This document shows, piece after piece, positions 22,601 through 56,637 of a stretch of 64,000 nt of DNA. The notes beneath the pieces were generated by a model. It was not told the origin of the DNA, did no database searches, and worked only from the letters and a program-made list of their open reading frames with translations. Source of the stretch: Thermoplasmatota archaeon (GTDB lineage: Archaea; Thermoplasmatota; Poseidoniia; Poseidoniales; Poseidoniaceae); contig JAYXXD010000001.1 of the NCBI GenBank assembly GCA_036019775.1, positions 3,202 to 67,201 of the forward strand. Reading direction: 5' to 3'. Made by a program: the position numbers and the translations under genes. Positions within the stretch are counted from its first letter, which is position 1. Each line of letters starts with the position of its first letter.

Positions 22601-23743
22601 ATAGTAAACATTCAGGCTTCTATGAATGCGATTGAGATTATCGATACCCAACCCTATGCTTCTGTGAATGCGGTTGAATCAATCTCCACCGGGATGTTTG
22701 TTGAACTTGTTGGTCCACAATCTCCGGTCGATGTTGATGCAAATGCAGCAATTGACGTTAACATATCGTTGAACGCCCTCGACTCTTCCAGTCCCGCTCA
22801 TCAGGCTTCACTTGAAGGAACAACAATTTCATGGAAGGCGTTCAACAATAATTCACAAGAACCATTGTCAACAGGCTCAGAAACAATAGATTCAGGAAAA
22901 ATTCGAATTGCATCCACATTTGAAGACATTAGCCGAATTGAATTTTCAGTCGATTCTGAGCAACGAATTTTCTTTGGTACGACTGAAATAACCCTCATAC
23001 TTAATCCATATTCTGTTCCAAATCAGAACAATGAAACGAATCAAAACGAAACGGAATGGGTTCCTACGAGCATACAGCCTGTTGAAATCGAATGCGAGGT
23101 GCCAACGTTGCTTACGAATCAACCATCCTCAGATGACCCAATCGAATGCAATATTAAAAACCCGAATCCGTTTTCAGTCAAGGTTGAAATTTTCGTAAAG
23201 GAATCTCCGCCGTTGTTTAAGTCGCCTGGCGTTGTGACAATCGAAGCAAATGGAACAGTTCCGGTATCGTTCGATCCAAAATACGACGAACCGCTCTGGG
23301 ACCGTCAAGATGATGCAAACGTTGAGAAAGAATTCACCATTCGAACACTCACAAGTGCAACGGTTTATGAGTTGAGCGTATCCAAGGAAGATATCGTTGT
23401 TTGGATAGCAGATATTTTTGTAACGACTGAACCGACTTCAGATGGAGAAGAACAAAGCTCTTCAGATGCAGTTCTATGGGGAGGAATTGGAGCAGGGGCA
23501 ATCATTCTTCTGATTGTCGGACTTGTTCTTTACCGTCGTGCATCTGCAGATTTTGAGGATGAATCCTTCTATCAAGAAGATGAAATTATGCTTGAAGAAA
23601 ATGATGAACCCGTTGAAATACCAACAGGAAAACCGCTCGATGAATTTGAAGACGTGGTTATTTCAGAACAACCAGAAAAGAAAGAACGTCCAAGCGATTC
23701 TCTTATTTCAGAGGTCGAGAACTTGGGAGACGAAATCATTTAA
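19601..23743 (+). CDS. Giant (1380 aa) secreted surface protein: FG-GAP/VCBS-like beta-propeller repeats, FN3/Ig-like domains, C-terminal TM anchor and acidic cytoplasmic tail
   Basis: GTG start with a GAGGGGG SD-like motif 9 nt upstream; signal peptide; FG-GAP-type repeats IADLNNDSYDDVV, IADLNLDGKPDLV, GGDIDADGDIDFI, ATIADHNNDGIASL, LFSDLNNDKVMEQ; TM GIGAGAIILLIVGLVLY; tail E/D-rich. Confidence 0.8.
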   Translation: MTSILKSKKAVLISLLLIIPLVLAPQSLANNTTEVNTFTGGAQSLTIQSDGSNTSNDLQLELTRNVTYQDASFIVKFENPSQSPGSVFVNNSFGDKIWEFSSPEYGGLGSQNSFESGYTYDIAMLNNNSTISTPILLPTNAGLQSSSVNVTFTPQIDGHYVPVGSVTQMELGNSNNDNMSDAFVLSTDNSTTGVNTGFAVIESSNTNHNYSLTNWTPTCSTSEVMRIADLNNDSYDDVVTFQIMNNTICIHYYNPTNLTYDPEILVNLTTDPMDLQIADLNLDGKPDLVSIHGPAQNGSVSLSLQITSSMFVEASNLPIYEWNSNQNRANMRSLKVGNFFSPLQNQTYLLVIDDNDDATLVYYDSQSKALMSNMTQYRNMSSESVGGDIDADGDIDFISPYMSESSIHLNNGTGWIETKSNQVIETRNATIADHNNDGIASLFFPNPMVSDGNPATIEGVIQFNDFHNSGILATNPSPLQPYSQPSDVLFSDLNNDKVMEQFVLAGESSQGVFIGAWHNLSIDADLDGSNDLSVEGYSSSTIQHLGVLTLSDSNDLIKTSFEYSLPPNPSITDGYDIEMQGYSIMLSSNSIGIANVSDLEINYDIEFLVTNNPGLVGSLTNSLNLEMEAGIGQFNVTLPVETSQPGSFEVVDLSLISTPGAPNITLPPDPALTSTVTLDNVKIEWQPISEFGPNLVEFLIYKSTSVESIDYSTPEEIVVNQNYFVDESISPGSTYVYVLRSIHLYGVASNFSSPIEVYVPYPSPPTPVTNVQLIDLDLSTQSSPLKVSWEENTDLHLVSEYKIYVAKSSFSPLNSESEILATENYTIDGVSFQPVATVPSSVLEYEIDQTSSKLSEGVVLPSEPIQDGIQYWVAVAAVDGYGNATGPLPFAGPTTPFNNTYINSQLEIIIESGPAESENHILESTSPMKITLHAYYLDGNGAITAIENADLELNLTYGEEQYLLSGESDSSGQWIAIDVENLHDSAIPQSLLNFSTNLTGIVNIQASMNAIEIIDTQPYASVNAVESISTGMFVELVGPQSPVDVDANAAIDVNISLNALDSSSPAHQASLEGTTISWKAFNNNSQEPLSTGSETIDSGKIRIASTFEDISRIEFSVDSEQRIFFGTTEITLILNPYSVPNQNNETNQNETEWVPTSIQPVEIECEVPTLLTNQPSSDDPIECNIKNPNPFSVKVEIFVKESPPLFKSPGVVTIEANGTVPVSFDPKYDEPLWDRQDDANVEKEFTIRTLTSATVYELSVSKEDIVVWIADIFVTTEPTSDGEEQSSSDAVLWGGIGAGAIILLIVGLVLYRRASADFEDESFYQEDEIMLEENDEPVEIPTGKPLDEFEDVVISEQPEKKERPSDSLISEVENLGDEII

Positions 23744-33688: not shown

Positions 33689-34386
33689 GCGGTAACACTC
33701 AAGGCTCACCGCTAAGTGGGCAGGTTATGTTGAGCGCAATAGGCACCCATGGGCCTGCTGTCTCACCGATTGCGATGGGAATGTTGAATGCAGCATTCTT
33801 CGCAATCGCAGTTTGGTTGTTGGTGAAACCACAACAGAAATCTGAAACATGGATGTGGCCACTTTTTCTTTTTGTCGGACTTGCTTCAATCTCTCGGATT
33901 GCGTTGAGTTTTATTCCAAATGTTATGCCTGTCACCATCATGGCAGTTCTTGTCGGTTCCAAGTTTGGTGTTCAACGCGGTGTTTCTTTTGCAATACTCG
34001 TTACCCTAATGAGCAATGCAGTGCTTGGGCATGGATGGTGGAGTTTCTTCCAAATAATTGGTTGGGGTTCAGTTGCAGCCATGGCATCGATGATGAGCGT
34101 CCACGACGCTGAAGGAAGACTTTCGATGAATCGACTCGCTTTCGCATCGTTATGGAGCGTTCCAATCTTCAGCATCATCGTTTCTATTTCGATTATTGAT
34201 TCGGGCATGTCGGTGATTGAATTCGGTCTTTACATCGCCAATGGATTGCTTTACGATTTACTTCATTTCCTCGGTAACGTCTTCTTTGCCATGTGGTTTG
34301 GGCAATGGTTTGAACGCCTACTTTCAATGAACCAACCACAAAACCATCTCACCCAACAGGAGAAGGAGCATGTCAGCACTATCTGA
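33673..34386 (+). CDS. Polytopic membrane protein, possible ECF-transporter S component
   Basis: ~6 TM, ~200-230 aa, 16-nt overlap with upstream gene; assignment by size, topology and context only. Confidence 0.4.
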   Translation: MATSLSGNTQGSPLSGQVMLSAIGTHGPAVSPIAMGMLNAAFFAIAVWLLVKPQQKSETWMWPLFLFVGLASISRIALSFIPNVMPVTIMAVLVGSKFGVQRGVSFAILVTLMSNAVLGHGWWSFFQIIGWGSVAAMASMMSVHDAEGRLSMNRLAFASLWSVPIFSIIVSISIIDSGMSVIEFGLYIANGLLYDLLHFLGNVFFAMWFGQWFERLLSMNQPQNHLTQQEKEHVSTI

Positions 34387-34741
34387 TCCACCCACGATGG
34401 CATTCCTTTGTCGAGCGGATCTCCAACTTTCATCTGGGAAACTTGCCGTCCAATGTGCACATGCTGCCGTAGGTTCCCTACAGCTGGCGAAGAAAACGCA
34501 CTCAAGAATGGTTCAACGTTGGACAGAATCTTCCTCGCGAAAAGTATGTCTTTCGGTCGAAGATGAAGAAGAGTTGGAGTACTATCTTGAACGTGTACAA
34601 GAAGCATCCCTTCCTTTTGCACTCATCAAAGATGCTGGATTAACCGAAGTCGCTCCCGGAACAGTAACCGTGCTTGGTGTAGGCCCTGGGCCGCGTCATA
34701 CTATGGATTCTTTGTTTAGCAATCTCAGGGCATATGAATGA
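34370..34741 (+). CDS. Peptidyl-tRNA hydrolase Pth2-family paralogue (divergent)
   Basis: LSSGKLAVQCAHAAVGS vs canonical MGKGKxAAQVxHAA; GGAGAAGGAG SD-like motif upstream; non-canonical C-terminus. Confidence 0.7.
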   Translation: MSALSDPPTMAFLCRADLQLSSGKLAVQCAHAAVGSLQLAKKTHSRMVQRWTESSSRKVCLSVEDEEELEYYLERVQEASLPFALIKDAGLTEVAPGTVTVLGVGPGPRHTMDSLFSNLRAYE

Positions 34742-34750: not shown

Positions 34751-35170
34751 ATGGGTTTTCGAAGTTTTCTTCATCGTATAACAGCTCCAAAATTTGAGCG
34801 TTATGTCCACCGTAATCAATCACTAAAAATGGTGTTCATTATCAATCATGAATTGAAAATGGGGAAGGGGAAAGTTGCTGCACAGGTCGGTCATGCTGCC
34901 GTTAAAGCGACACTCAAATCGGGTGAACTTCATCCAGAACTTCTCGATGCATGGCTTTCAACAGGACAGAAGAAAATATGCCTAAAAGCAGATAATGCAC
35001 ATCATATTGAACAGATTGAAAGACAATCAAAAGAACTTAAAATTCTAACGTCAAAAATACATGATGCTGGCCACACACAGATTCCAGCAGGCTCTCTAAC
35101 AGTCCTTGCTTTGGGGCCAGATGAAGATGAGAAACTGAATCTTTTGACGGGAGAATTGAAACTTCTCTAA
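34751..35170 (+). CDS. pth2: Peptidyl-tRNA hydrolase Pth2 (canonical archaeal type)
   Basis: [17 protein letters not shown]...ICLKADN...[15 protein letters not shown]...TGELKLL. Confidence 0.8.
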
Positions 35171-39453: not shown

Positions 39454-40629
39454 TCAGAATACCTTCTGAAGGACACCATAGTCGACAATCTCGCCGGAAG
39501 CTACTTTCTTCAAGAGGGCCTTTAACCGGTTCTTGATGGTGTTGCGACATCGGCCAATAGCATGGGCAATGTTCTCAAGCCGTCCTTGTTCCACTTCAAA
39601 GGCTTCACAAGACTTTTGGAAAAGAATAGCGCACAAGACTCGAGCTTCGATGTTCTCCTGTGAGAATGGTGAATCGCTAAGCGTTGGTTCACCAAGTCGA
39701 AACAATCGTTGGTTAAAATCATCCATAATCTTTGACTTCAATGCATCATCAAGCCCATCGAGAAGCAACTTAAGGCGGAGTTTTGTGTTTTGAATCTCCG
39801 TATTTCGCAACTCATGGTGAACTGTTCTTCGGTCAGAACGTTGTTCGATGAGCTTTGCCTTCTCACAGAGATTAAGATACTTCATGACGACTTTGGCAGC
39901 GTCAACAACTTGTTTGAGCGTTAGGCCAGTACCCTCAACCATCTGTGGCCAATCAATGTTGATTTTGCCTGTTCGCTCTTGGTGGGCTCGCAGACATGCA
40001 AGTGCAAGCAAACGTTCGTTATTTTTCGTACTGCCGCCTCGTGTCTTTTTTCGACATACAGAGTTCTTTGGAAGGATAATTTCATCTTCCTTTGCAATCT
40101 TTTTTATCGCATTGGACTTTGCTCCATTAAGTGGAACAGTTGCCAGTGTTATGACCTTTTTCGCTTTCATTGCGTTGTCTTTTCCTGCCAAATCTTTCGC
40201 CGCATTCATTGTGGCTTGCGCCATCGGATGCATGTCCTTGATGCCTTGGTTGTTCAGGTTACTGAGAATCTTCCATTTGCCTTTTGCTTCTCCAGGTTTG
40301 CCGATGTATGAGCCAAGCCCATTCCCTTTCACACCAGTCTTAATTTTCGACTCATCTTTGGTTGGGGTATTGAAACCATGTTCACCCCACATTGTTCCTG
40401 CATTATCGTTTTCTGTCATCGATGCATGATCGACGACAACGAGACCACAATCATTGCAAACCACCTCGCCTCGGTTGATGTCCATATTCAAGTCATAGCT
40501 TCCACATTCTTCACACTTTTCCGTCAATTTTCTTCCTCCTTGTTCAGTTTTGTTCCAACATGAATCATTATCAACCCTCTTTGTGCTGTTGAGTTCGAAG
40601 GGAAGAAAGACACGCTGGAGTATAGACAT
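39454..40629 (-). CDS. tfb: Transcription initiation factor TFB (TFIIB homologue) with a ~90-aa Lys-rich insertion
   Basis: N-terminal Zn ribbon CEECGSYDL..x..CNDCG; two cyclin-fold repeats; C-terminal helix region. Confidence 0.85.
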   Translation of the reverse strand: MSILQRVFLPFELNSTKRVDNDSCWNKTEQGGRKLTEKCEECGSYDLNMDINRGEVVCNDCGLVVVDHASMTENDNAGTMWGEHGFNTPTKDESKIKTGVKGNGLGSYIGKPGEAKGKWKILSNLNNQGIKDMHPMAQATMNAAKDLAGKDNAMKAKKVITLATVPLNGAKSNAIKKIAKEDEIILPKNSVCRKKTRGGSTKNNERLLALACLRAHQERTGKINIDWPQMVEGTGLTLKQVVDAAKVVMKYLNLCEKAKLIEQRSDRRTVHHELRNTEIQNTKLRLKLLLDGLDDALKSKIMDDFNQRLFRLGEPTLSDSPFSQENIEARVLCAILFQKSCEAFEVEQGRLENIAHAIGRCRNTIKNRLKALLKKVASGEIVDYGVLQKVF

Positions 40630-40776: not shown

Positions 40777-43700
40777 TTGCTTTTATACCGTCGTCTTCTA
40801 TGTTACGAAGCGGGGGATATTTTAGTGAACATCACGTTTGAAGCATGTCCTCCAGAGAACATCGTCCCCTCATGGTTAATTGCTAATATTGCAAGCGGAC
40901 GAGACGATATACTCGTGATTTATCCGAATGAAAGTACGCGTTCAAACTCGATTCAATCCATACTCCAAAAAACAGGGACAGTTGATTCGAGTAGACACAC
41001 AACTCTCCAGCGACTTACCAAAGCGTTAGCAATTGATTTTCGCCTCCCAGTTCTGATCCCTAAATCATCAATTGGTCTTGTTCAAGTTCATGAAAAGCTG
41101 GTCACAGAGGCGTTGAATCATCGCTTCCCTCGTCTTCATCCAGACCCGACTCGGCCTTGGACGATTTCAAAATCTGAGAGGTTACTCAAACTTCATTCGT
41201 ATGCCACCAATCATCGTATTCTTTCGAAATGGGAGGAAGATCCAGGTGCTCGTGAGGCAGAACGTATTCTTTCCACATTCAGAAAAAACGACCTTCTCCA
41301 TGAACATCATGTCTTAGATCGACTTTCTAGAGATTTATTGGATGCAGAAATCTTAGGACCGTATACAATTAGTACAATCAAAGGCATTGTGTTGTTGAAC
41401 CACCCTCCAGACTTCACTGAAACCGAGAAGCGATTTTTCAAAGCATTGTCAACACGATGCCCAATTCACCATGTATGCGTTACAGGTTCCTTCCGTCTTG
41501 GATACCATGGGGCTTACATTGATGATGAAATCAAGGCCATTGAGGATATAGCAGACTTGCCTTCGTGGGTACCACAACATCAGATTTACACTTCAAAACA
41601 AAATGATTACGCGACAAATGGCGTTCATGTACTCAGCTTTGATCAAGCCACATTGGTGATGGATGCAGCGATTTCAGCTCTACAACTATACAAGAGTCAC
41701 ACGGGAGGGCGCGTTTTACTCGTGGACGCAAATAGACATAGGCATATTGAATGGGTTCGTCGATTGAATCGAATCGGAATAACATGTAATATTCATCGCG
41801 ATGTAGTAGGGAGCACATCGGCTGTTCAAGCGATTCTTCGATTCCTGTCGATTTCGAATGGCCAAGATGCTTGGTCTGCAACGAAGTTGTTCGACATCAT
41901 TCAATCACAGGCATTCCCGATGCTGGAGAACCTTTTTTCAGAACTTGAACACCCAATAAACAAAGATTGGCGACCTAGACCTCATTTGGATGTGATTGAA
42001 AATCTTGGACGAAGTTTTCATGTTCTTGGTGGAAAAGGAGCCCTTCAACGTTGGCTAGGTTCACTATCTGTCGCAAAACCCTATTCAACGGAAGCCTTTC
42101 GCCAAGAACAAGAGTTGCGGAAACTTGAGGAGACACAATGGTGGTTCCAATGTCTTGCAGTTTCTTGGTCAGCACTCCTGAGCGAACAAGAACGGAAGAC
42201 CCTCACAACTGAATTGATTGGAACATCAACTAAAACATCACTTCCTTTGCCGCAACCGAGTAAGTCGCCTAGAGATATTCTTTCATTGATGCTTTCATCT
42301 TGCGACTGGGAGCGCTTGTTTAGGCGGACTCAAAGATATGATGCCTCAGTAGGCGCAATCCAAGTTTGGGTCCAAACCATCGATGCGATGCTTCAGTATG
42401 AAACGAGCATCGATTTTGTTGACCTTTGCCGCCTTGCCTCTGAAGAAACCGAAATACCTGCTCATCGGATTGAACACCCCGACGTACTCGTTCGCACTCC
42501 TCTTCAGGCATACGGAGTCGAAGCAGATATCACAATGTTCGTCGGTCTTGATGCCGAATCGTGGTCGATGAAAGCAGAGCGAATTCCTTGGATTGATGAT
42601 TCAGTTCGAATTCAGCTAGGCTTGACTGATGGTGATCTCCCCATCCGTCGTGCCCGCCATGTGTTCAAATCATTACTTAATTCCAGCCAACAGGCGATAC
42701 TTTTTGAAACGGAACATGATGAATCAACAGGAAATTCGACACCAATTGCTGAGTATCTTTCAAAAATAGAATTGGATGGTAAATTGACAGCATTGAGACA
42801 ACCTCCGGCCTTTATTCAGCCATCAATATCTGATGGCGCAGGATGGACAACGATAACAAGAGATGACGGAAATGTCGTTACTTATCGAAGGTCAGCATTA
42901 TCCATCAACGGAAGAGAGGTATCCCTCGATTACGCGGAAAATACTCTTCGAAATAACAAACAAAAGGCAGGCCTTGAACTCAAAGCACACCGCCAACCAA
43001 TTTCAGATGTCCAATCACCGAATTCAATTGCTGCACGTTATGAGCGAGAAATTCATCTCGATCGATTTCGCCGCCAACCAAAATTCGAATCCATAGAGAA
43101 TGGAAGTTTCATGAATTGGTCGATAAGAAACAACCTGCTGACGACGACGAATATCATCATTCAGCCTACCGTTTCTCAAGCAAAGATTGCCGGGGGCAGG
43201 ACAACTAATCTCTACCCACACCTTGGTTACAAAAGGAATAGAATTTCAAGTGGCCCTTCTATCGATCCACGGCCACTTCCACCTCCACAATTCGATTCTG
43301 TGAGTTTGAATGCAATCCTTACAACTCAGACTAGAGAAAACAAATTGAGAATTTGGTCAACGAGTCGATTGAATCCTTGGTTTATTTGTCCTCGCCAAGC
43401 ATGGGCTGAGCAAACGTTGCAAGTTACCGAATCTTCTCCAGAACTTTCTGAAGATATTGCGCCTTTGACGAAAGGAACGTTGGTTCATTCCATTGAGGAA
43501 CATCTAATGACGATGCTTGGAATTGAGGTTGGTGGTCTACCGCTTTCAGCAGGTGTGCCATTGCACCTTGGCGTTCCGCTTTCTGAACAAGAAATATGGG
43601 AAAGTGTACTTGGCCGACTATCTGAACTCGCTCCGTGGCTTTCAAGGACCAATGCTGTTTCTGTACATCGTTGTAACGATCTAATTGGATGCACTCCAGA

Positions 43701-44496
43701 TAATTGGAATGCTTGGATTGATGGGAGCCAAAAATTGCCAATTAGTGGACGATTAGGACGCCTTCTTTCTGCAGACTTGAGTCTTACATCTGCCGCTCCG
43801 ATTGCAAGCGAGTGGGCGCTTCAGCATCAGGATGAACACCATGTTGAAATTCAAGGATACAACGATTTGATGGAAACGGCTTCAATCAATATACGTGGCA
43901 GAATTGACAGAGTCGATGAAAATGTTTTCCCAACAGAGGATATTGCGCAATTGCGTGAAAATGGACTCTTTGCAGAGGATGCTAAAGAGATTCCACTCTT
44001 CTTTGATGGTACGGAGCCGCCTGCAAAACGCTTCATCATCATCCGGGATATCAAAACGATTGAAGGGCCAAAACCCGGACGAGCGGGAGCACGGCATACC
44101 TCTGGGCTGTTCAACGAAATTCAACTTGCTATGTATGCACGTGCTTGGGAAATTGCCCATCCGGGTGATCGCGTCGTTGGGGTTGGAATTTCAGAGGTTG
44201 GCGACGATACCGAGCATTTTGTTGAGTTGGACCCAAGTTTTGAACCATTTACCTCAGCTCTCAATCTTGGGACGCCGACTTCATATTCAATCAACCATTT
44301 TCGTCTTCCAAATGAGAATGCAAGTCCGCAGACGAATAGTTTTCGTGCATGGATGAATTCCCGAATCACAGCTGCATTGAGAGCGGCTGAAGCAAGTGAA
44401 TTGGGTTGGAATCATCCGACGCCAGGGCCACATTGCTCCTATTGCTCTCTTTCGAGTGCATGTCCTTCAGCATCAATAGGAGGTGAATTGAAGTGA
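40777..44496 (+). CDS. AddB/RexB-like subunit: degenerate helicase-like N-terminal region plus C-terminal RecB-family PD-(D/E)XK nuclease with Fe-S cluster
   Basis: C-terminal motifs FICPRQAW (Cys 1), LVHSIEEHL, GRIDRVDE, IIRDIKT (D-x-K), QLAMY, HCSYCSLSSAC (C-x2-C-x5-C); no Walker A; start TTG 40777 or GTG 40825. Confidence 0.7.
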   Translation: MLLYRRLLCYEAGDILVNITFEACPPENIVPSWLIANIASGRDDILVIYPNESTRSNSIQSILQKTGTVDSSRHTTLQRLTKALAIDFRLPVLIPKSSIGLVQVHEKLVTEALNHRFPRLHPDPTRPWTISKSERLLKLHSYATNHRILSKWEEDPGAREAERILSTFRKNDLLHEHHVLDRLSRDLLDAEILGPYTISTIKGIVLLNHPPDFTETEKRFFKALSTRCPIHHVCVTGSFRLGYHGAYIDDEIKAIEDIADLPSWVPQHQIYTSKQNDYATNGVHVLSFDQATLVMDAAISALQLYKSHTGGRVLLVDANRHRHIEWVRRLNRIGITCNIHRDVVGSTSAVQAILRFLSISNGQDAWSATKLFDIIQSQAFPMLENLFSELEHPINKDWRPRPHLDVIENLGRSFHVLGGKGALQRWLGSLSVAKPYSTEAFRQEQELRKLEETQWWFQCLAVSWSALLSEQERKTLTTELIGTSTKTSLPLPQPSKSPRDILSLMLSSCDWERLFRRTQRYDASVGAIQVWVQTIDAMLQYETSIDFVDLCRLASEETEIPAHRIEHPDVLVRTPLQAYGVEADITMFVGLDAESWSMKAERIPWIDDSVRIQLGLTDGDLPIRRARHVFKSLLNSSQQAILFETEHDESTGNSTPIAEYLSKIELDGKLTALRQPPAFIQPSISDGAGWTTITRDDGNVVTYRRSALSINGREVSLDYAENTLRNNKQKAGLELKAHRQPISDVQSPNSIAARYEREIHLDRFRRQPKFESIENGSFMNWSIRNNLLTTTNIIIQPTVSQAKIAGGRTTNLYPHLGYKRNRISSGPSIDPRPLPPPQFDSVSLNAILTTQTRENKLRIWSTSRLNPWFICPRQAWAEQTLQVTESSPELSEDIAPLTKGTLVHSIEEHLMTMLGIEVGGLPLSAGVPLHLGVPLSEQEIWESVLGRLSELAPWLSRTNAVSVHRCNDLIGCTPDNWNAWIDGSQKLPISGRLGRLLSADLSLTSAAPIASEWALQHQDEHHVEIQGYNDLMETASINIRGRIDRVDENVFPTEDIAQLRENGLFAEDAKEIPLFFDGTEPPAKRFIIIRDIKTIEGPKPGRAGARHTSGLFNEIQLAMYARAWEIAHPGDRVVGVGISEVGDDTEHFVELDPSFEPFTSALNLGTPTSYSINHFRLPNENASPQTNSFRAWMNSRITAALRAAEASELGWNHPTPGPHCSYCSLSSACPSASIGGELK

Positions 44497-47400
44497 TCTC
44501 CTTCAATCGAAGCCAGCGATTGGGCCTGAATTTGGATCAACATATTGCTTTGGATGCAGGTGCAGGTACGGGAAAAACAACCGTTATGGCAGAACGGTAT
44601 GTTCAGCATCTCCTGTCTGCTGAGCAACGTGCCACGTATGTACTTCCGCCTCCGATCCGACAAGAACAATTTGGGTCAGGAAAGGTCTTGGCAGCAAAGC
44701 GTGATCGAACTTCCGTGAAAGATTGGAAAGGTCTCTTGCCACAAGAGATTGTCGCGATTACATTCACTCGAAAAGCCGCTTCGGAACTACGCTCCCGTAT
44801 ACGTAAACGGATACAATCTCTGCGTGCCAACCCTGTCAATGATGATGATCGAATGGGCGTTCATGACCCTCGACTACGTCATCAGGGCGATGTTTCGATG
44901 CTGATGTCATTGCTTGAGGCTGCACCAATTTCAACAATTGATGCATTTCTTTCAGAAATTTTGGCGCCGCATATTGATTTAGTTGCCATACATTTGAGTA
45001 GAGAACAATTGCCTGAAGAAAAAGCCCCTCTTCTACGTAACCAAGCCCTCAATTCTGCATGGAGAATTCGGAATTCTCAAGACGCTATCGAGGCAGGCAT
45101 GTATCAATCTGCGGATGAGTTCATTTCTGCTCGAAACAGGTTGGCAATCCGGCTCGGGGGACAACAGAGTGCTCAAACAGTTTTAGCAGGCCTTCTCGAG
45201 TCGTCCCTTTTTGTTGAGGAATCAAGACGTCGTCTTCGTTCACGTTCTATCAGTGCGAACCTACCTTGGGATGGCCATTCACCTCCAGATTACCGTTTGG
45301 TTGAAGATATGATTTTACAGGAATGTCAACACTTGGTCGATCCAGTGGTAGAGGATGTTTATGCCATTCTAAATGAATGGATTGATGTCTTCCTTCAGTA
45401 CCATTCTATATTTGTTGCACCGGCACAAATTGAAACAACCAGTACTCGTTTCAATCAACTCGTAGATTTAGCAAGAGGAGCATTACCAGATGCGCCGATT
45501 GAACGGCTCCAATGGTTGTACCAAGTCGTATCCTCGGCCACATCGATTACTCAGTTGAACGAGGCCAAACCTACTGTTTTGAAAGGAGGAAACTTTCCGC
45601 GCAGCAATTCACTTTCCGGTTGGCCAGCGGGGTTGATGACCTGGTCTTCAGTTCTCAAAAGAAAGGATGAGAAATCTCTGAAAGGCCAGATTTCAAGTGC
45701 TGCTTCTGATGCCGCACAACGGCTGCAAGACCGCATTCATGACCCTTCAGATGGTCGGTTGGTTTTCATGCTCTCGAAGGTGGCCTATTGCCTCAATCCG
45801 TCTCGTCGGTTCGCGTATAGAGATGCCAACGAACGCTATGATCGTCAACAACTTGGTCTCAAATTAAGTCAAGAAGCCCCCCTGGCGGGCATGAGAGTTT
45901 CGAAAGAACTCCAAGTAGAGGTTTTGAATGATCTTTACATCGTACATTCGGGTTGCCAAGATTTGCTTCGTCACCTGAAGTCTCAGGAAGAGGCCCATGA
46001 TTTTGATGATGTGCAAGTTATGGTAGGAGATCTGCTTCTGGTCCGCTGCCCAGCAATCGTTCGTCATTGGTATCCTCCTGAGGCTGTCCAAGCCTTAGAT
46101 GACCTTGGAGAAGAACCCTGGTCCGATGAACACATTCGAAAGGCCCTCACAATTATGCAAAGTGATGAGGCAAAATATCTGGATTTGCAACGAAGGTATG
46201 CACTTCTGAAGCAGATTCGCGCTCGGTATCGAGCATTCATTATCGACGAATATCAAGATACAAACCCTGAACATGCACGTCTCCTTTCTCGTCTATGGGG
46301 CCGTCGCGAAGGCATATCCGATGAACATCCAGCGCCATCTGGACCGTGGGACCCAACCATTTGCATCGTCGGGGATATGAAGCAGAGCATCTATCGTTTC
46401 AGACAGGCAGAGGTCACGGTTATGCGCCGAATGGTTGCAGCCATCCGTGTTGCGAATAGTCTCGAAAATAATGAGTCAAGACTGGAGGCCTTCACCCAAC
46501 AAGGATTTGGTAGAGATCCCCGACCAATCGGCGCAGGGGGAGAATTGGGCTCTTTCATTCGGGCATCGGATTATTCCCGTGAGGAACAATCATCGTCATG
46601 GGATTACGTTTCTTTCGGGAGAGATGATGCTGGGATGGCACTCGAAGACTCAACCAGACAAGAACGAGCAGAGGGTCATATTCAACTTCGAACAAATTTC
46701 CGTACTGCTCCTGCTTTGCTCCAAACTCTCAACAACATGTTTGAAGACACTTTTGACTCAAGACATCATCAATTCCCTGGAGATTTTCATGCGACTGCGC
46801 AACCACTTGACGCCGGCCGAGAAACCTCTCTTGAAGGGGCGATTGAATGGCTCTTGCCCACACAAAACAATACTGGAGAGTTGCCATTGAATCTGATGGA
46901 AGGATACAACCTCTACGATGCAAGAAATGCAAACCTTCGCCACCTTGAACATGAACTGATTGCTTCGAGGTTGGATACATTAGTTCGAGGATTACCGACG
47001 CGAATTTGGTCTGCAGAAAATGCAGAGTACATCGAGATAGAGGCTGAAGAGAAGATTTCTCCTGAAGACGTGATGATTCTTGTACATTCACGGAAGCACA
47101 TCCCAGATCTTGTTGCGCGTCTTCAATCGCGAGGACTACCGGTTATGGCCGATAAGCAAGGCGAATTGCTTAAACAACCCGTCGTTCAACCATTGATGGC
47201 TGTTCTGGAACTACTTGCCAAGCCAAATTCAAGGCATGCTGCACATTCCTTACTACGTTCCTCGATTGTTGGTGCTTCATCCATTCAAATTGAAGAAATA
47301 TTCCAATTGACCGATGTGGAAGACTATTGGGTTCATTCGGCAGAATATTTTGCTTCAGCAGCGCAAGGACCCCTTCTTCTTGCACTTGCTCAATTGGCTC

Positions 47401-49466
47401 AAAATGGTGCAGTTTACGACTTATTCGATGCAGTATTGGATTACAGCGATTTGCTTATTGCGTTCCCCGACGAAGCTGAGCGTCAAGTGGCTGAGATGTG
47501 GTGCGCATTGGTTCATAAGATTGGGTCTGAAACCGGCCATGAACCCGCGGCAATACTTGAACAAATGAAGGCATATGCAACACTTGGAAATAAGGGGCCA
47601 CAAGCCAGTTCATCACCAACCAGTGGCGCAATTCAAATAATGACAATTCACGGTGCGAAGGGACTCCAAGCACCTGTTGTTATTGTAACAGGATTGTTCG
47701 AAGCAGGGCGGAGAAGTTCAAGCATAGAAGCACAGAACAATATTTTGATCACACCCGATGTTATTGCTGGAAGAATCCAGCCATGGAAGTCAAAAGATAA
47801 ACCAGCGGATGCTCTCTGGATGCTAGCAGAACAAATGAACAAGGCACAGAATCAAGCCGAGTTACGACGTCAGTTCTACGTAGCGTTAACTCGCGTCAAA
47901 GATCGTCTCATTTTTGTTGGATCTCCGAACACTCCCTGTACAATTGGTGAGAATTCGATGGTGACCATGAAAATCAATTCGAAAGGAAACAATATGGGTG
48001 ATTTGATGTTGGATGGATTCCGATATATGGGGCACTGCTCTGGAAATCAGCAAGTATGGAGTCTTGAAGGAGATGTGCAAGGTGAACACTTGGAAGAATA
48101 CGGAGAACAAGTGTTGGAATTCAACCCCATCAGTATTTTCCATGCTAGCGGCTTCATGTCAGGTTCCCTTCAACGACTTCGAATGTATCATCATCCTGAC
48201 TGTTTTTCAATCCAAACGCCAACTTCAGCCTTATCGAATTGGTTGGCTATTGAAGAACAACTTTGCGAGCCTGTTGACGCGGTCCAATCGGACCAATACA
48301 TCGTACATCAATCACCAACTCTCAGAATGACAGCACATGGATTGGATACTGCAAATTCATGCCGTCGCAGATATTGGTTATCGCATGTGAAGGGTTGGCA
48401 AAGTGAACCGTTCAATATCGGAAAAAATTCGAGTTCAGCCATTGATGAAGAGGAGCAAAAGGATCGTTCAAATGGAGAGGATTTGGAAAATATGGTAATT
48501 GGTTGGCCTTCAGCAACATCATTTGGTTCGATGTTTCACAGACTTGTTGAGATTGGTTTAGCTAATCCAGCAAGAATAAAATCGAAGAACAGTGAACTTG
48601 GTCCAGTTTGGCTCAATGCTCAGAAAAATCAACTGCTTTCAGACAAAGAAATCGATGATGCAACACAGTCACAGCCGGAATGGCATCGACTGTCAAAAGA
48701 AGAGCAACAGAAAACTCGATCAAGAATCGTTCAACTTGCAACATTGCTTACAAATGGATCCTTAGGAAGGATGGTTGATGGCGAAGAAATCAATGATTGC
48801 AACATTGAAGGGTTACGCACTGAAGCATCCTTCTATTTTGATTATGAAGTCGACTTCGAAGGCCTTGTTCGGTTGCCACTTACCCAACTGAATGAACCGT
48901 ATGTAACACGAATCGATACCGTCAAAATACTCTTCGAGGGCCAAGCAGATCTCGCATTGGCAGGTGTTCAAGGAGATAAACCATGGTTGCAGGTTGTCGA
49001 TTTGAAAACTTCCGGTGCACGCACGGAACGTCTCGAAGAACATGCATTGTATGAGTCATTGAATGAACCGTATTCTTTTGAACCTCAAAACGATGCTGAG
49101 TATGAGATGTTACGTAATCATCGACTTCAACTGACTCTGTATTCTCTTGTTTTTCGACGCCAAGAAGATCGAAAACCAACTGATAAGCGAAGAGAAGTAC
49201 GTCCACCGGCTTTGCTAATCGCAAGCACTGGTCGTTTTGTTCAAATGCCTGAGAATATGTACGAGGAAGCTGAGAATGAATTGCTTGACCTGCTTCAATG
49301 GGTGGCGAATTTGACCGCGAATCCGAATGGCACCACCGAGCCAAAACGCCTTCCGATGGAATTCATTGATACCTGCAAGAAATGTCCATTCTTCAAGGGC
49401 GATGTTCGAATGTGTGGTCCACAAGGAATGGAATTAGGCATCAACGGTGACCTTTCTTTCCAATGA
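44493..49466 (+). CDS. AddA/RecB-like UvrD-family SF1 helicase with C-terminal PD-(D/E)XK nuclease (1657 aa)
   Basis: Motif I LDAGAGTGKT, Ia TFTRKAASEL, III FIIDEYQDT, IV GDMKQSIYRFRQAE, IVa NFRTAP, V TIHGAKGLQAPVV, VI YVALTRVKDRL; nuclease GSMFHRLVE, EGQADLAL, VVDLKTSG, LTLYSL; GTGA overlap with the upstream gene. Confidence 0.85.
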   Translation: MISFNRSQRLGLNLDQHIALDAGAGTGKTTVMAERYVQHLLSAEQRATYVLPPPIRQEQFGSGKVLAAKRDRTSVKDWKGLLPQEIVAITFTRKAASELRSRIRKRIQSLRANPVNDDDRMGVHDPRLRHQGDVSMLMSLLEAAPISTIDAFLSEILAPHIDLVAIHLSREQLPEEKAPLLRNQALNSAWRIRNSQDAIEAGMYQSADEFISARNRLAIRLGGQQSAQTVLAGLLESSLFVEESRRRLRSRSISANLPWDGHSPPDYRLVEDMILQECQHLVDPVVEDVYAILNEWIDVFLQYHSIFVAPAQIETTSTRFNQLVDLARGALPDAPIERLQWLYQVVSSATSITQLNEAKPTVLKGGNFPRSNSLSGWPAGLMTWSSVLKRKDEKSLKGQISSAASDAAQRLQDRIHDPSDGRLVFMLSKVAYCLNPSRRFAYRDANERYDRQQLGLKLSQEAPLAGMRVSKELQVEVLNDLYIVHSGCQDLLRHLKSQEEAHDFDDVQVMVGDLLLVRCPAIVRHWYPPEAVQALDDLGEEPWSDEHIRKALTIMQSDEAKYLDLQRRYALLKQIRARYRAFIIDEYQDTNPEHARLLSRLWGRREGISDEHPAPSGPWDPTICIVGDMKQSIYRFRQAEVTVMRRMVAAIRVANSLENNESRLEAFTQQGFGRDPRPIGAGGELGSFIRASDYSREEQSSSWDYVSFGRDDAGMALEDSTRQERAEGHIQLRTNFRTAPALLQTLNNMFEDTFDSRHHQFPGDFHATAQPLDAGRETSLEGAIEWLLPTQNNTGELPLNLMEGYNLYDARNANLRHLEHELIASRLDTLVRGLPTRIWSAENAEYIEIEAEEKISPEDVMILVHSRKHIPDLVARLQSRGLPVMADKQGELLKQPVVQPLMAVLELLAKPNSRHAAHSLLRSSIVGASSIQIEEIFQLTDVEDYWVHSAEYFASAAQGPLLLALAQLAQNGAVYDLFDAVLDYSDLLIAFPDEAERQVAEMWCALVHKIGSETGHEPAAILEQMKAYATLGNKGPQASSSPTSGAIQIMTIHGAKGLQAPVVIVTGLFEAGRRSSSIEAQNNILITPDVIAGRIQPWKSKDKPADALWMLAEQMNKAQNQAELRRQFYVALTRVKDRLIFVGSPNTPCTIGENSMVTMKINSKGNNMGDLMLDGFRYMGHCSGNQQVWSLEGDVQGEHLEEYGEQVLEFNPISIFHASGFMSGSLQRLRMYHHPDCFSIQTPTSALSNWLAIEEQLCEPVDAVQSDQYIVHQSPTLRMTAHGLDTANSCRRRYWLSHVKGWQSEPFNIGKNSSSAIDEEEQKDRSNGEDLENMVIGWPSATSFGSMFHRLVEIGLANPARIKSKNSELGPVWLNAQKNQLLSDKEIDDATQSQPEWHRLSKEEQQKTRSRIVQLATLLTNGSLGRMVDGEEINDCNIEGLRTEASFYFDYEVDFEGLVRLPLTQLNEPYVTRIDTVKILFEGQADLALAGVQGDKPWLQVVDLKTSGARTERLEEHALYESLNEPYSFEPQNDAEYEMLRNHRLQLTLYSLVFRRQEDRKPTDKRREVRPPALLIASTGRFVQMPENMYEEAENELLDLLQWVANLTANPNGTTEPKRLPMEFIDTCKKCPFFKGDVRMCGPQGMELGINGDLSFQ

Positions 49467-50121
49467 TGGCCAAAGTACCTGGCTGGCCTGATGATTGATT
49501 GGCTCGCCATGCCTGTACTTCACAAAAACCAACATGATTCCACATTTCTATCCATTCCTTTTCTGAGAATGTGGACATATGGACATCGAGTGCTTCAGGC
49601 CAGCCCAGACTTTCTTCATTTTCTGAATAATGATCAATTCCAATCACTGCCCAACCACCTTCAGCCAACCAATCGTCGTGAATGGATTGTAACATTTGAT
49701 GAGGTTCGTGGAGATAATAAATAAATTCCATTGAATGGATAAGATTGTATTGTTGAGGTGGCTGTGTATCAGGAAATACAGCAAGATGATAACCATGTTT
49801 AGAATCAATATTTTTTGCCTTCTCAATCATGTGCGGAGCGCCATCAAAACCATCAGCTTGGGTGCAATTTTCAAGTTCACCAACGATTCGAACAACCCAA
49901 CCATTTCCACATCCTAAGTCTGCGAATGAAAATAAATCATTTTCTTGATTCATCTTTTGGAAAGCAACCTCCAACATTTCTTTGACAGCAGGGCTATGTC
50001 CACGTTCCATACCTTCGTCTTTGCCTCTGTGTGCCCAATCGTTGAAGACATCTGTTGCCTGCTTCATGACCCGACGAAGGCATTCGTCGAAAAAAGGCAT
50101 CGAAAGCAACATCATCCTCAT
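49441..50121 (-). CDS. Class I SAM-dependent methyltransferase
   Basis: Motif I FADLGCGNGWVV; 226 aa; 26-nt convergent overlap with the AddA-like 3' end. Confidence 0.65.
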   Translation of the reverse strand: MRMMLLSMPFFDECLRRVMKQATDVFNDWAHRGKDEGMERGHSPAVKEMLEVAFQKMNQENDLFSFADLGCGNGWVVRIVGELENCTQADGFDGAPHMIEKAKNIDSKHGYHLAVFPDTQPPQQYNLIHSMEFIYYLHEPHQMLQSIHDDWLAEGGWAVIGIDHYSENEESLGWPEALDVHMSTFSEKEWIEMWNHVGFCEVQAWRANQSSGQPGTLAIIGKKGHR

Positions 50122-54675: not shown

Positions 54676-56637
54676 ATGGATGCAGTATTCATTGCTCTTG
54701 CCTTCTTTTTTACTGTTGTTGGATTTGCAACATTTTACGTTCAGCGTGGAATAGGAAATATGGCAGATCCGATGCGCCAGTTCGGACTGTTCCTCCTCAA
54801 CAAAGCGCCCGCAGGTATTGTTGACCTTTTCAGTGATGGGAAAGGCAGCGGTTCCAAAACGTGGATGAATTTTGGAATGATTTGGCTCACTTTTGCTGCC
54901 ATTGGAACATTCCTTGCTCTTTGGCATGATTATGATGCAACAGCATTGGATTCACTTGCAAGCATTGGTTGGGAATACGACGATGGGAGTTCATTGAACG
55001 CATTTGTTGATATCACGCTCATGACAGGCCTCATGTCGATTCTAATTGGCGGCGGACTTGTTGCAGCAGCACGAGCAGGAGCAGGTCGACTTGCTAGTGA
55101 AGCAAATGCGAGTCTCACCGCACTTCTGTTCTCGGTTTTGACAATCTCTTCGATGCTTCTTCCTACAATTCTTGGCCTTATTTTCGATTTATCAGCAGCA
55201 AATGATGCATTCATCAAAGACCTCTTTCTGAATGCTCTTCGTTCATTCATCATCATTGCTGTAATGATCAACGTTCTCATTACAGTTGGCCAACGAAAAG
55301 GAGAGGTTGTTTCAGCGAGCAATTGGTTCCTGTTCATGGCGCTTGCTTCGTTTATTTTCGGTTCACAATTCCGCTTCTTTGGAGAACTCGCAGATTCTAC
55401 TCAAACCGTTTGGCTCGGTGAGAGAATGTCTCAGTCTTGGACACTTATCGCACTTCTATTCGCTGTGGCTTATCACGTTGTTCCACGAGCCGCAAGTCGT
55501 CCAATTTGGTCGGATTCAATGACAAAAGCGAGCCTTCTTCTCCTCTTTTTCACATTACCACCGTTTTTGTTATCTTCAGCAGATGCTGGAACGCTGCTTG
55601 AGAATATCGGAGCCATCTTGATGACGCTTGCACTACTTCCAATTTTGGCTGGTTCTGTGAACATTATCATGACTTCATTGAGCAATGCGACTGGTGTTGT
55701 CTCACGACCGGGTGCACTAGCCGCAACCATCGCAATGGTCTTTTTCCCACTGTACGCCCTTGGAGGATACTTCACTTCACTTGATGTTTTCATAGGGCTA
55801 GGAGCTCTAAACGATATGGCTGAGACAGTTGATATCGGATTCATGTGGACTGTTGGTGGTTTGATGGCTGTTGCTTGTGTTGCTGAATCTTACCCTCTTG
55901 CAGGAGATCGACAACTTTCCTCGCCTTCATCTGCATCGCTGTCGACGATGTTGATTGCTTTCGGTGGGGTTACCTCTACGGTTGCAAAATTGATGGGAGA
56001 CTTCACAGAAAAAGCACTTCTTGATTCTGGAAGCGAAGATGTCGTCATGACAGATGGTGGTTTCAGCCTTACCGCTGCTGTTTTGTTTTACTTTGGATCA
56101 ATTGGTATTATACTCTTGTTCCTCAATCTCATCCGCACTTCAATTGGTGGCGTAAAAGTCGATACATCTGTTTCAACGACATCAGACATCTCTCGTTATT
56201 CGATGCAACCTGGTGAATCCTCAATTCGCAAGCTATTGCAACGTGGAGTGGGCGTGGATACAATTCTCGTTGTTGGAGCAGATGTCGAAGACGAAGGCGG
56301 AATGACAATCATCGATGTATCGTCAACATTGCACGATGACGAAATTGATGAATTCCCAGTCGAAAAGAACGAGCTGGAAATGTTATCCGATTATCTGGCA
56401 AAGAAAGACATCAGTATTTTCGAATTCTTCCGGTCAATAGACCTTGACGACTCTGGCCTCATTGATGGATATGAACTTCAGCAAGCACTGCGGAATGCAG
56501 AAATTGCAGATTTACCTCCATGGGATATCGCCAAGTTGATGGAATTTGTTGATATTGATGGCGACGGACGAGTAAATCTTCCAGAGCTTGATATTGCAAT
56601 TGCACGTGTTCGTTCAGGCGTATCTGAAGAAGAGTGA
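54676..56637 (+). CDS. Polytopic membrane protein (~12 TM) with C-terminal pair of canonical EF-hand Ca2+-binding loops
   Basis: EF loops DLDDSGLIDGYE and DIDGDGRVNLPE (DxDxDGxIxxxE consensus) at ~56440-56590; hydrophobic helices throughout. Confidence 0.65.
   Translation: MDAVFIALAFFFTVVGFATFYVQRGIGNMADPMRQFGLFLLNKAPAGIVDLFSDGKGSGSKTWMNFGMIWLTFAAIGTFLALWHDYDATALDSLASIGWEYDDGSSLNAFVDITLMTGLMSILIGGGLVAAARAGAGRLASEANASLTALLFSVLTISSMLLPTILGLIFDLSAANDAFIKDLFLNALRSFIIIAVMINVLITVGQRKGEVVSASNWFLFMALASFIFGSQFRFFGELADSTQTVWLGERMSQSWTLIALLFAVAYHVVPRAASRPIWSDSMTKASLLLLFFTLPPFLLSSADAGTLLENIGAILMTLALLPILAGSVNIIMTSLSNATGVVSRPGALAATIAMVFFPLYALGGYFTSLDVFIGLGALNDMAETVDIGFMWTVGGLMAVACVAESYPLAGDRQLSSPSSASLSTMLIAFGGVTSTVAKLMGDFTEKALLDSGSEDVVMTDGGFSLTAAVLFYFGSIGIILLFLNLIRTSIGGVKVDTSVSTTSDISRYSMQPGESSIRKLLQRGVGVDTILVVGADVEDEGGMTIIDVSSTLHDDEIDEFPVEKNELEMLSDYLAKKDISIFEFFRSIDLDDSGLIDGYELQQALRNAEIADLPPWDIAKLMEFVDIDGDGRVNLPELDIAIARVRSGVSEEE

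Follow-up and report, generated by a model that had tools for sequence, protein, structure and literature searches.

A probable AddAB-type helicase-nuclease pair conserved across the archaeal order Poseidoniales

Introduction

In the bacterial AddAB (RexAB) system, adjacent addB and addA genes encode a partner protein, which combines an inactive helicase-like N-terminal scaffold with a C-terminal nuclease bearing a four-cysteine Fe-S signature, and a single SF1A motor with a C-terminal RecB-type nuclease. The AddB of Bacillus subtilis keeps a Walker A motif, and the RecC domain that corresponds to the AddB nuclease is catalytically dead. The mechanism of AddAB and the role of its Fe-S cluster have been described (PMC3321194, PMC8789073), and AdnA, a subunit of the mycobacterial AdnAB, keeps Walker A and B motifs (PMC3321194). 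Hudaiberdiev et al. 2017 (PMC5704561) describe a further group, the UvrD-Cas4-like fusions (pfam12705), which occur both in bacteria and in mesophilic archaea and are often associated with defence.

The textbook split places RecBCD and AddAB in Bacteria, and Mre11-Rad50 together with HerA-NurA in Archaea (e.g. PMC12977600). Transfer of AddAB into archaea was suggested in 2009 (Cromie 2009, as that work is cited in PMC2887965), and the archaeal AddAB-like pair described here is a variant of the kind proposed since then rather than wholly new. The pair lies in a 64-kb stretch of DNA, hereafter the window, from an archaeon of the family Poseidoniaceae (Marine Group IIa, MGIIa). This family belongs to the order Poseidoniales, whose members rank with the most abundant archaea in ocean surface waters.

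Results

As originally predicted, two giant open reading frames lie on the + strand and overlap by the tetranucleotide GTGA at 44493-44496. In our ORF scan, the AddB-like gene (40825..44496, + strand) encodes 1223 aa from GTG 40825, and the AddA-like gene (44493..49466, + strand) encodes 1657 aa. The AddB-like start had previously been placed at TTG 40777 (1239 aa), probably 16 codons too early. GTG 40825 is the likelier start because a 99 %-identical database protein (P0121) has 1223 aa, the motif GGGGGAT (40812-40818) lies 6 nt 5' of this codon, and a TATA-box-like TTTTATA (40781..40787, + strand) lies 38 nt 5' of it; AddB-like residues are accordingly counted from GTG 40825. Judging from its sequence, TTTTATA is a putative archaeal promoter element of a two-gene operon. 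The coupling junction (44479..44496, + strand; ...GGAGGTGAATTGAAGTGATC...) comprises a Shine-Dalgarno-like motif, GGAGGTGA, at 44479-44486, ahead of the AddA-like GTG start (44493-44495), which overlaps the AddB-like TGA stop (44494-44496). We infer that the two genes are co-transcribed. The AddA-like start is shared with database relatives of 1640-1667 aa, which align end to end.

Pfam searches, proposed with the original prediction, recovered UvrD-helicase (E 3e-34), UvrD_C (E 1e-20) and PDDEXK_1 in the downstream protein and only PDDEXK_1 (E 2e-11) in the upstream one, the N-terminus of which contains no Pfam domain. The SF1A (UvrD/RecB-type) helicase region of the AddA-like protein, with family-specific insertions, spans residues 1-~1150 (44493..47942, + strand) and includes Walker A (GAGTGKT, 23-29), motif II (DEYQD, 585-589), motif III (GDMKQSIY, 627-634), motif V (TIHGAKG, 1051-1057) and motif VI (ALTR, 1131-1134). 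These motifs are kept at a level of at least 95 % across 120 sequences. The PD-(D/E)XK nuclease domain (residues ~1280-1657; 48330..49463, + strand) contains the motifs DLKT (1503-1506) and QLTLY (1546-1550), and its catalytic residues are invariant down to 30 % identity. This domain also bears a conserved four-cysteine signature (C1290; C1628-x2-C1631-x9-C1641), which the original prediction overlooked. Among the nearest bacterial AddA-type proteins, such a signature is rare (2/40), and the characterised AddAB and AdnAB differ from the MGII pair in that they do not have it in both nuclease domains.

The AddA-like protein had been noted as some 400 aa longer than AddA and RecB, and it does exceed both E. 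coli RecB (1180 aa) and B. subtilis AddA (1232 aa), the latter by a surplus of about 425 aa. The extra domains postulated to account for this length can, however, be rejected because the insertion map resolves the surplus into at least nine dispersed insertions of 21-60 aa each. A second metal site formed by C488, C519, C624 and C1237 was also considered and dropped: C488 is not conserved in the deep members of the family, and C519, C624 and C1237 are each missing in some of the deepest ones.

The best PDB sequence match of the AddA-like protein is B. subtilis AddA (E 6e-15); PDB searches with the nuclease domain, and with a 13-sequence profile of that domain, gave no significant match. An AF2 model of an AddA-like fragment is of medium quality (pLDDT 75). 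In comparisons with NCBIfam, the protein scores 147.0 bits to addA_Gpos (TIGR02785, cutoff 707.65) and 123.6 bits to addA_alphas (TIGR02784, cutoff 860.75), that is, it lies outside both curated equivalog families and belongs to the broader AddA/RecB class. An exhaustive search covered 1.84 billion proteins, and the top eight full-length relatives from outside the family that were scanned each have an addA model as their best match (8/8).

The AddB-like protein consists of an inactivated SF1-helicase-like scaffold without a P-loop (residues 1-840; 40825..43344, + strand) and a PD-(D/E)XK nuclease domain (residues ~845-1223; 43357..44493, + strand) with a Cas4/AddB-type four-cysteine signature. 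The nuclease matches the Cas4 N-terminal motif and contains G..DR.D (1025-1031), DIKT (1075-1078) and QLAMY (1100-1104), all intact and conserved across the family. The C-x2-C-x5-C element that had been predicted for the upstream protein was located at residues 1204-1213 and forms part of a signature (C855; C1204-x2-C1207-x5-C1213) in which C855 is kept in 107/107 members, and C1204, C1207 and C1213 in 93-94 %. The nuclease motif sets of both subunits are intact, and the cysteine patterns suggest that the two nuclease domains probably each bind an Fe-S cluster.

An N-terminal P-loop (Walker A) occurs in 119/119 AddA-like but 0/110 AddB-like proteins, and we therefore interpret the pair as a single-motor system. 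In this respect, the MGII AddB-like protein, which entirely lacks the P-loop, differs from both AdnA, with its Walker A/B motifs, and B. subtilis AddB. The absence of Walker A throughout the family leaves no AdnA-like second motor, which makes a machine of the AdnAB type (two motors, two nucleases) or the RecBCD type (two motors, one nuclease) very unlikely. The RecBCD arrangement is further disfavoured by the intact active site and Fe-S signature of the AddB-like nuclease, the counterpart of a dead domain in RecC, and by the scan for a RecD-like SF1B helicase near the pair, which found none among the window ORFs of at least 150 aa. The AlphaFold model of the AddB-like protein, which is confident (pLDDT 86), matches AdnA, AddB and RecC over 670-820 residues in fold searches, and the longest of these structural alignments, 817 residues, is to AddB.

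A PDB sequence search with the whole AddB-like protein yielded no significant match, and hhalign of the non-nuclease region to genuine AddB gave E 2.5e-6. The protein reaches 19.6 bits to addB_alphas (TIGR02786, cutoff 486.5) and does not match addB_Gpos (TIGR02773, cutoff 903.7), so that it falls far below the curated NCBIfam AddB cutoffs. The very weak conservation of the N-terminus and its lack of a Pfam domain could be taken to indicate that no complex forms, the AddA-like protein acting alone and the upstream protein being a separate Cas4-like nuclease whose large N-terminus is structural. The heterodimer is a prediction only, and the window does contain a solo nuclease of this class, a stand-alone PDDEXK_1 protein. 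However, the same N-terminus folds confidently as a scaffold of the AdnA/AddB/RecC type, for which the only role known to us is that of a partner to a RecB, AddA or AdnB motor. These partnerships are treated in PMC3321194. Furthermore, the two families diverge in parallel. Their gene order, in which stop and start overlap or abut, persists from relatives of 99 % identity to those of 28-30 % and extends to a lineage with 71 % GC. Given these observations, we regard independent action of the two proteins as improbable and favor an AddAB-type pair.

The AddAB-like pair is present in MGIIa, MGIIb and the 71 %-GC lineage. The two genes are adjacent in L001-L033 and L038-L042, that is, in every examined locus long enough to contain both, and in the distant loci L038-L042, the AddB-like and AddA-like coordinates abut or overlap. 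More than 30 loci, which bear the labels Poseidoniaceae, Poseidoniales or unclassified archaeon, have identical surrounding synteny, and part of it is retained in MGIIb and L042. The dN/dS ratio is 0.08-0.09 for the AddB-like protein against its orthologues and 0.066 for the AddA-like protein; the pair is under purifying selection. The spread over MGIIa, MGIIb and the 71 %-GC lineage, the adjacency of the genes, the housekeeping synteny and dN/dS values of about 0.07-0.09 jointly argue for ancient acquisition followed by vertical inheritance, and the pair looks like an old core feature of Poseidoniales (Marine Group II). The original prediction had offered a horizontally acquired repair module as one option, while allowing that placement in an established archaeal AddAB-like clade with conserved synteny would make the pair ordinary. 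Largely, the latter is what we found: the best matches span MGIIa and MGIIb, and the pair belongs to a large Poseidoniales-wide clade, being neither a recent import nor an oddity of one genome.

A recent horizontal gain limited to this genome or its genus, with the contig possibly a bacterial contaminant, would fit the bacterial-type architecture and the fact that two public metagenome-assembled genomes (MAGs) containing the locus are labelled as bacteria, namely Rhodobiaceae (L003) and Salipiger (L004). These labels are best explained by mis-binning, given that both contigs share the archaeal gene order. Moreover, the pair is flanked by archaeal genes, the GC content of the window is uniform, with no compositional island at the pair, and a large score gap, 349 bits vs at most 111 bits, separates the family from any bacterial protein. 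Recent acquisition is thus refuted by the distribution and the synteny, and we assign it a negligible probability. Across the large score gap, the nearest outside relatives of the pair are bacterial AddA and an alphaproteobacterial-type AddB. Because a 107-sequence AddB-like profile, run against 5.8 billion proteins, returned family members and a single AddB of that type (E 9e-4), the only outside relative of the AddB-like protein detectable by sequence, the donor clade cannot be named.

The neighbours named in the original prediction, MCM, GatE, Pth2 (in two tandem copies) and tRNA-Arg GCG, are present, and the flanks additionally encode Trm1 and a YGR210-type GTPase. The exception is the presumed TFB, of which we recognise the N-terminal zinc ribbon but not a full-length protein (27 bits vs a cutoff of 384). 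The convergent SAM-methyltransferase, suggested earlier to form a defence system with the pair, is a Tam/BioC-like enzyme of the small-molecule type rather than a DNA methyltransferase; in MGIIb and L042, it is swapped for a Peptidase_M20 gene, and it is not conserved beyond the family.

These findings bear on the possibility that the pair serves in defence against viruses or plasmids, either as a Gabija-like module or as an R-M-associated UvrD-Cas4 fusion, perhaps acting with the methyltransferase. AddAB and RecBCD degrade linear foreign DNA, and the nuclease of the AddA-like protein belongs to the Cas4/Fe-S type. In PADLOC, GajB matches extend down to E 2e-22, although they cover only generic UvrD-type helicase motifs, and no GajA-like partner was found among the annotated neighbours, as would be expected for Gabija (GajA-GajB). 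The UvrD-Cas4-like fusions resemble the AddA-like protein in joining a UvrD-type SF1 helicase to a Cas4-like, cysteine-bearing PD-(D/E)XK nuclease, and often occur in defence contexts, but they are stand-alone or tied to type III R-M or Dcm/Vsr (PMC5704561), whereas the MGII protein always occurs together with its AddB-like partner and has housekeeping flanks, and the nearest outside relatives scanned score as AddA. Order-wide, fixed housekeeping synteny is just what a variable defence island would not show, and, combined with the uniform composition, it speaks strongly against such an island; no relatives of the pair were found on viral contigs either. A dedicated defence role appears unlikely on this evidence, and an AddAB-type enzyme remains the preferred reading.

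Discussion

Taken together, these results make it likely that the pair is a single-motor, dual-nuclease machine of the AddAB type that is vertically inherited as part of the core gene complement of Poseidoniales. Motifs, profile comparison and fold searches all support the predicted AddA/AddB architecture, in a genome that is clearly archaeal, the motor finding its best PDB match in AddA and the partner its longest structural alignment in AddB. Compared to AddAB of B. subtilis, of other bacteria and of the alphaproteobacterial type (NCBIfam TIGR02784/TIGR02786), the MGII pair is distinguished by its archaeal host order, its scores far below the curated family cutoffs, the longer AddA-like protein, and the four-cysteine signature that is also found in the motor subunit.

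What we observed directly is the structure of the genes, their domains and motifs, the similarity in fold, the distribution and synteny of the family, and purifying selection. A model of the machine can be built on these observations; the heterodimer, the polarity on the two strands, the binding of Fe-S clusters, regulation by Chi and the role in the cell enter it by analogy. The Poseidoniales that carry the pair are uncultured, and the mechanism is predicted by homology. By comparison with B. subtilis AddAB, the two proteins would form a heterodimer on a double-stranded DNA end. The AddA-like protein, as the sole ATPase, would move 3'->5' on one strand and unwind the duplex, with its C-terminal nuclease cutting the 3'-terminated strand and the AddB-like nuclease cutting the 5'-terminated strand. 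In the AddB-like protein, the first 840 residues, a dead helicase-like region, would serve as a scaffold and, possibly, as a scanner for a regulatory, Chi-like sequence. The expected product is a single-stranded 3' tail on which the archaeal recombinase could act, and the same activity would degrade linear foreign DNA.

The presumed task, to supply the archaeal recombinase with 3' tails at DNA ends, is shared with Mre11-Rad50 and HerA-NurA (PMC12977600), the proteins and architecture of which are unrelated to those of the MGII pair. No Mre11, Rad50, HerA or NurA was detected among the window ORFs scanned, our literature search found no paper that ties NurA to MGII, and the supplements of Rinke et al. 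do not contain these four terms. A tentative extension of the model, which we consider possible but doubtful, is that the main end-resection enzyme of Poseidoniales is an AddAB-type machine, acquired in ancient times and equipped with two Fe-S nucleases, that feeds RadA, is perhaps regulated by lineage-specific Chi-like words, and supplements or replaces Mre11-Rad50 and HerA-NurA. No Chi-like word stood out in the 64 kb of the window, where Markov-corrected over-representation of 6-8-mers peaked at z ~3.5 among thousands of words; the search was underpowered.

If this extension holds, a bacterial end-processing engine has been wired into archaeal/eukaryotic-type recombination across an entire order. 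A conserved AddAB-type machine in a whole, ecologically dominant archaeal order would in itself run contrary to the textbook split. It would also extend to DNA repair the known wave in which mesophilic archaea took up bacterial genes. Should the pair prove to be a working resection enzyme, the handover of a bacterial-type motor-nuclease to RadA instead of RecA, the existence of Chi-like regulatory words in archaeal genomes, and the contribution of a second Fe-S cluster, located in the motor subunit, would all become testable.

Public records name the two families only 'UvrD-helicase domain-containing protein' and 'PD-(D/E)XK nuclease family protein' or 'hypothetical'. With a dedicated family model, thousands of marine metagenome proteins would be better annotated. 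Elsewhere in the same 64-kb window, we observed the stand-alone PDDEXK_1 nuclease, at 7822-8982, and a bacterial-type NAD-dependent ligase.

Gene structure and architecture of the pair

The six-frame ORF list contains the two giant ORFs of the original prediction, at 40777..44496 (+, 1239 aa, TTG start) and 44493..49466 (+, 1657 aa, GTG start), and the GTGA overlap can be read in the junction sequence GGAGGTGAATTGAAGTGATC, where the GTG start (44493-44495) lies over the TGA stop (44494-44496). A strong Shine-Dalgarno-like GGAGGTGA at 44479-44486 (+) precedes the downstream, AddA-like gene. For the upstream, AddB-like gene, GTG 40825 is a more probable start than TTG 40777, because a 99 %-identical database protein has 1223 aa, GGGGGAT lies 6 nt upstream, and a TATA-like TTTTATA occupies 40781-40787 (+). 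Residue 1 is taken here as the GTG at 40825 in the AddB-like protein (gene 40825..44496, +) and as the GTG at 44493 in the AddA-like protein (gene 44493..49466, +). The GC content is even, at 0.43-0.48, over 36-54 kb of the window; a compositional island is therefore absent at the pair.

The AddA-like protein matches the Pfam families UvrD-helicase (E 3e-34), UvrD_C (1e-20), AAA_19 and PDDEXK_1 (1.6e-7, with the profile almost fully covered). Together with the helicase motifs (Walker A GAGTGKT 23, DEYQD 585, GDMKQSIY 627, TIHGAKG 1051, ALTR 1131) and the nuclease motifs (DLKT 1503, QLTLY 1546), these matches confirm the predicted SF1 UvrD-type motif set and C-terminal nuclease. For the AddB-like protein, Pfam detects PDDEXK_1 alone (E 2e-11, residues ~860-1048 when counted from TTG 40777), and NCBIfam adds faint matches to addB_alphas (19.6 bits, within the non-nuclease stretch) and to the Cas4 N-terminal motif. 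Its nuclease shows DIKT 1075, QLAMY 1100 and the anticipated C-x2-C-x5-C Fe-S signature at C1204, C1207 and C1213, with C855 upstream. No P-loop was found in the AddB-like protein, and an N-terminal Walker A occurs in 0/110 members of its family, compared with 119/119 near the N-terminus in the AddA-like family. Because both nuclease motif sets are intact as well, the pair has the AddAB layout of one motor and two nucleases (PMC3321194), and the AddA/AddB-type architecture originally proposed is borne out. We rejected the AdnAB type because the partner has no P-loop, and the RecBCD type because the partner nuclease is intact and the scan of window ORFs yielded no RecD gene. The pair may serve in recombinational repair, in breaking down linear foreign DNA, or in both.

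By sequence alone, the AddB-like protein is nearly an orphan. A PDB sequence search gave no match, and a search of 5.8 billion proteins with a profile of 107 sequences retrieved just its own family and a single 1013-aa protein (E 9e-4). The latter is a genuine AddB of the alphaproteobacterial type (TIGR02786, 841 bits vs a cutoff of 486), which hhalign aligned with the family profile over 334 non-nuclease columns (E 2.5e-6, probability 89 %), including the common block ADLvLLvGLDvdSWsMK..PWLD..R..LGL...D..IR.gRH. Given this match, we conclude that residues 1-840 constitute an SF1-helicase scaffold that has lost activity and belongs to the AddB/AdnA/RecC class.

The great length of the AddA-like protein had been attributed to extra domains. 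Alignment with 11 bacterial AddA-type proteins (1118-1303 aa), taken from the nearest ones, lent no support to an added autonomous domain: the surplus is scattered over nine or more insertions conserved in the family, each of 21-60 aa (residues 47-75, 365-396, 430-465, 518-564, 659-718, 1454-1478, 1514-1534, 1562-1584 and 1626-1655, the last being the Cys tail), and the clean insertions total 303 aa. Separately, C488, C519, C624 and C1237 (nt ~45954-48203) are 97-100 % conserved in the 120 closest family sequences, with C624 immediately preceding helicase motif III. C488 is absent from deep members, and each of the other three is missing in some of the deepest; these cysteines may make up a second site for metal binding or redox chemistry, or may be lineage-specific.

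A four-cysteine signature in both nucleases

The original prediction overlooked a four-cysteine pattern in the AddA-like nuclease, namely C1290, within the motif 'LD....CRRR.WL', together with C1628-x2-C1631-x9-C1641 at the very end of the protein. These residues are 92-99 % conserved in 120 sequences and unchanged in a 13-sequence sample down to 26-30 % identity. In profile-profile comparison, the first-Cys motif matches the AddB-like family motif 'SRL..WL.CPRQAWL...G.LVH' (E 1.8e-5). Of the full-length family members, 122/137 have the C-terminal cluster, as do only 2/40 of the closest AddA-type proteins from bacteria. From sequence and fold, we infer that the AddA-like nuclease probably binds an Fe-S cluster. 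Such clusters have been reported for characterised AddB (PMC3321194) and AdnA (PMC8789073), and neither report describes one in the motor subunit; the pair, with four cysteines in both nucleases, thus differs from these systems, in which Fe-S is placed in one subunit. The two outside proteins, P0423 and P0450, terminate in CxxCx(5-6)C, so that motor subunits with an Fe-S-type nuclease appear sporadically outside the family.

Relationship to bacterial AddAB

The pair is so divergent from bacterial AddAB that the curated NCBIfam models fail on it. The AddA-like protein scores nearly equally with recB (150.6 bits), addA_Gpos (147.0) and addA_alphas (123.6), far under the cutoffs (~700-860 bits). 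In an exhaustive phmmer search with residues 458-1657 against 1.84 billion representatives, the family formed a set of full-length proteins (1506-1716 aa) that aligned end to end and scored between 1800 and 349 bits. Beyond a gap, the full-length proteins that followed (1030-1350 aa) reached at most 111 bits, mostly over the helicase 2A/2B region. All eight outside relatives scanned, one of them labelled Thiotrichales, had addA_alphas or addA_Gpos as the best model (243-551 bits, all under cutoff), and RecB, UvrD or PcrA was best for none. These sequence comparisons place the AddA-like family as a well-separated sister of bacterial AddA, and the AddB-like side shows a faint affinity to alphaproteobacterial-type AddB. 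No donor clade could be named from the phmmer and profile searches, and no Chi-like signal was seen in the 64-kb window, a size at which the search is underpowered.

Distribution and vertical inheritance

Named database relatives of the pair are 'Candidatus Poseidoniaceae / Poseidoniales archaeon'. Clustered at 90 % identity, the AddA-like family comprises more than 120 clusters, with lengths of 1640-1667 aa throughout and identities of 98 % to 43 %; AddB-like identities range from 99 % to 28 %, and a 31 %-identical cluster contains a protein from 'Candidatus Thalassarchaeaceae' (MGIIb). On either side of the pair the genes are archaeal (MCM, GatE, Trm1, two tandem Pth2, a YGR210-type Obg GTPase and a TFB-like zinc-ribbon protein). 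Among the neighbours originally named, MCM, GatE and Pth2 hold; the 'TFB' (39454-40629, -) reduces to an N-terminal TFIIB zinc-ribbon match (27 bits vs the PRK00423 cutoff of 384), no cyclin-fold repeats being detected in its 391 aa. This gene is divergent from the AddB-like gene and keeps its position within Poseidoniaceae only.

All Poseidoniaceae loci of sufficient length share the order lyase - orf753 - orf347 - TFB-like - AddB - AddA - MTase - hydrolase - orf265 - PSD - rSAM - EF-hand - Obg. The two genes also lie side by side in MGIIb loci (1176/1190 aa, then 1630/1643 aa), with MCM - GatE - Pth2 - lyase upstream and Peptidase_M20 downstream where Poseidoniaceae have the methyltransferase. 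At 30 % identity, the deepest AddA-like representative has 1558 aa; it is encoded on a 3.0-Mb contig of 69-73 % GC, overlapped and preceded by a 1164-aa AddB-like gene, in a wider neighbourhood like that of Poseidoniales (Pth2, M20, PSD, rSAM, Obg). Approximate dN/dS values against two orthologous loci, with dS near saturation, are 0.08-0.09 (AddB-like) and 0.066 (AddA-like), and no relatives of the pair were found on viral contigs. In combination, these findings point to a single ancient presence, in the Poseidoniales ancestor or deeper, with vertical inheritance thereafter, and argue against a mobile or defence-island origin. Recent transfer or contamination is rejected by synteny, and the idea of a recently acquired module gives way to an archaeal gene order fixed across related loci.

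That the pair is a defence module with the convergent methyltransferase (49441-50121), as had also been suggested, we consider improbable. PADLOC does give matches, limited to GajB (UvrD helicase) and, weakly, Cas4, and UvrD-Cas4 fusions (PMC5704561) share the helicase and Cys-nuclease architecture of the AddA-like protein. However, the GajB matches are only generic, no GajA, R-M or Dcm/Vsr gene is among the annotated neighbours of the pair, and the methyltransferase is of the small-molecule type (Methyltransf_23/12/25, Tam/BioC-like) and is kept beside the pair only within Poseidoniaceae. Moreover, the fusions are stand-alone or R-M-linked, whereas the AddA-like protein has its AddB-like partner in every examined locus of sufficient length.

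The 3.0-Mb contig with the deepest representative, ENA ERZ26167216 ctg495766 (3,002,195 bp), bears the most divergent copy of the pair. Five of its proteins were looked up, each a singleton, and the contig may be a whole genome from a high-GC, undescribed relative of Poseidoniales. Two contigs from public MAGs labelled 'uncultured Rhodobiaceae bacterium' (CALDQY010000213.1) and 'Salipiger bermudensis' (CAXQWT010000040.1) are probably mis-binned, since they carry the archaeal Poseidoniaceae gene order.

A recent HerA-NurA paper (PMC12977600) repeats the Bacteria/Archaea split of end-processing systems. An archaeal AddAB-like system is nevertheless not unprecedented, because transfer of AddAB genes 'even into the archaea' was suggested by Cromie (2009), as cited in PMC2887965, and UvrD-Cas4-type fusions are on record for mesophilic archaea (PMC5704561). 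The system is unmentioned in two MGII genomics papers (PMC6461757, PMC6741140) and in one on Poseidoniales evolution (PMC10877094), and a full-text search found no paper joining AddAB with Marine Group II or discussing RecB in Poseidoniales. Within the literature searched, the order-wide, vertically inherited conservation, the divergence beyond the reach of curated models and the four-cysteine pattern in both nucleases are undescribed.

Other genes in the window

A bacterial-type NAD-dependent DNA ligase, LigA (751-2895, +; adenylation, OB, HhH and BRCT domains), is a further bacterial-flavoured DNA-metabolism gene in this archaeal window beside the AddAB-like pair. A solo 386-aa PDDEXK_1 nuclease of the Cas4/AddB class (7822-8982, +; full Pfam profile, E 4e-21) is convergent, with a small overlap, with a DnaQ/RNase T-like DEDDh exonuclease gene (8957-9784, -), and the two may be another DNA-end-processing pair. 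Large proteins predicted to be surface-bound or secreted include a 1380-aa FG-GAP repeat protein (19601-23743, +), a 653-aa protein with a C-terminal EF-hand pair (54676-56637, +) and two PKD-domain proteins (2953-5463 and 10319-11494, both +). The tandem archaeal peptidyl-tRNA hydrolase (Pth2) genes (34370-34741 and 34751-35170, +) score above or near the NCBIfam cutoffs, and MGIIb loci and the deepest, high-GC locus have one copy vs the two here.
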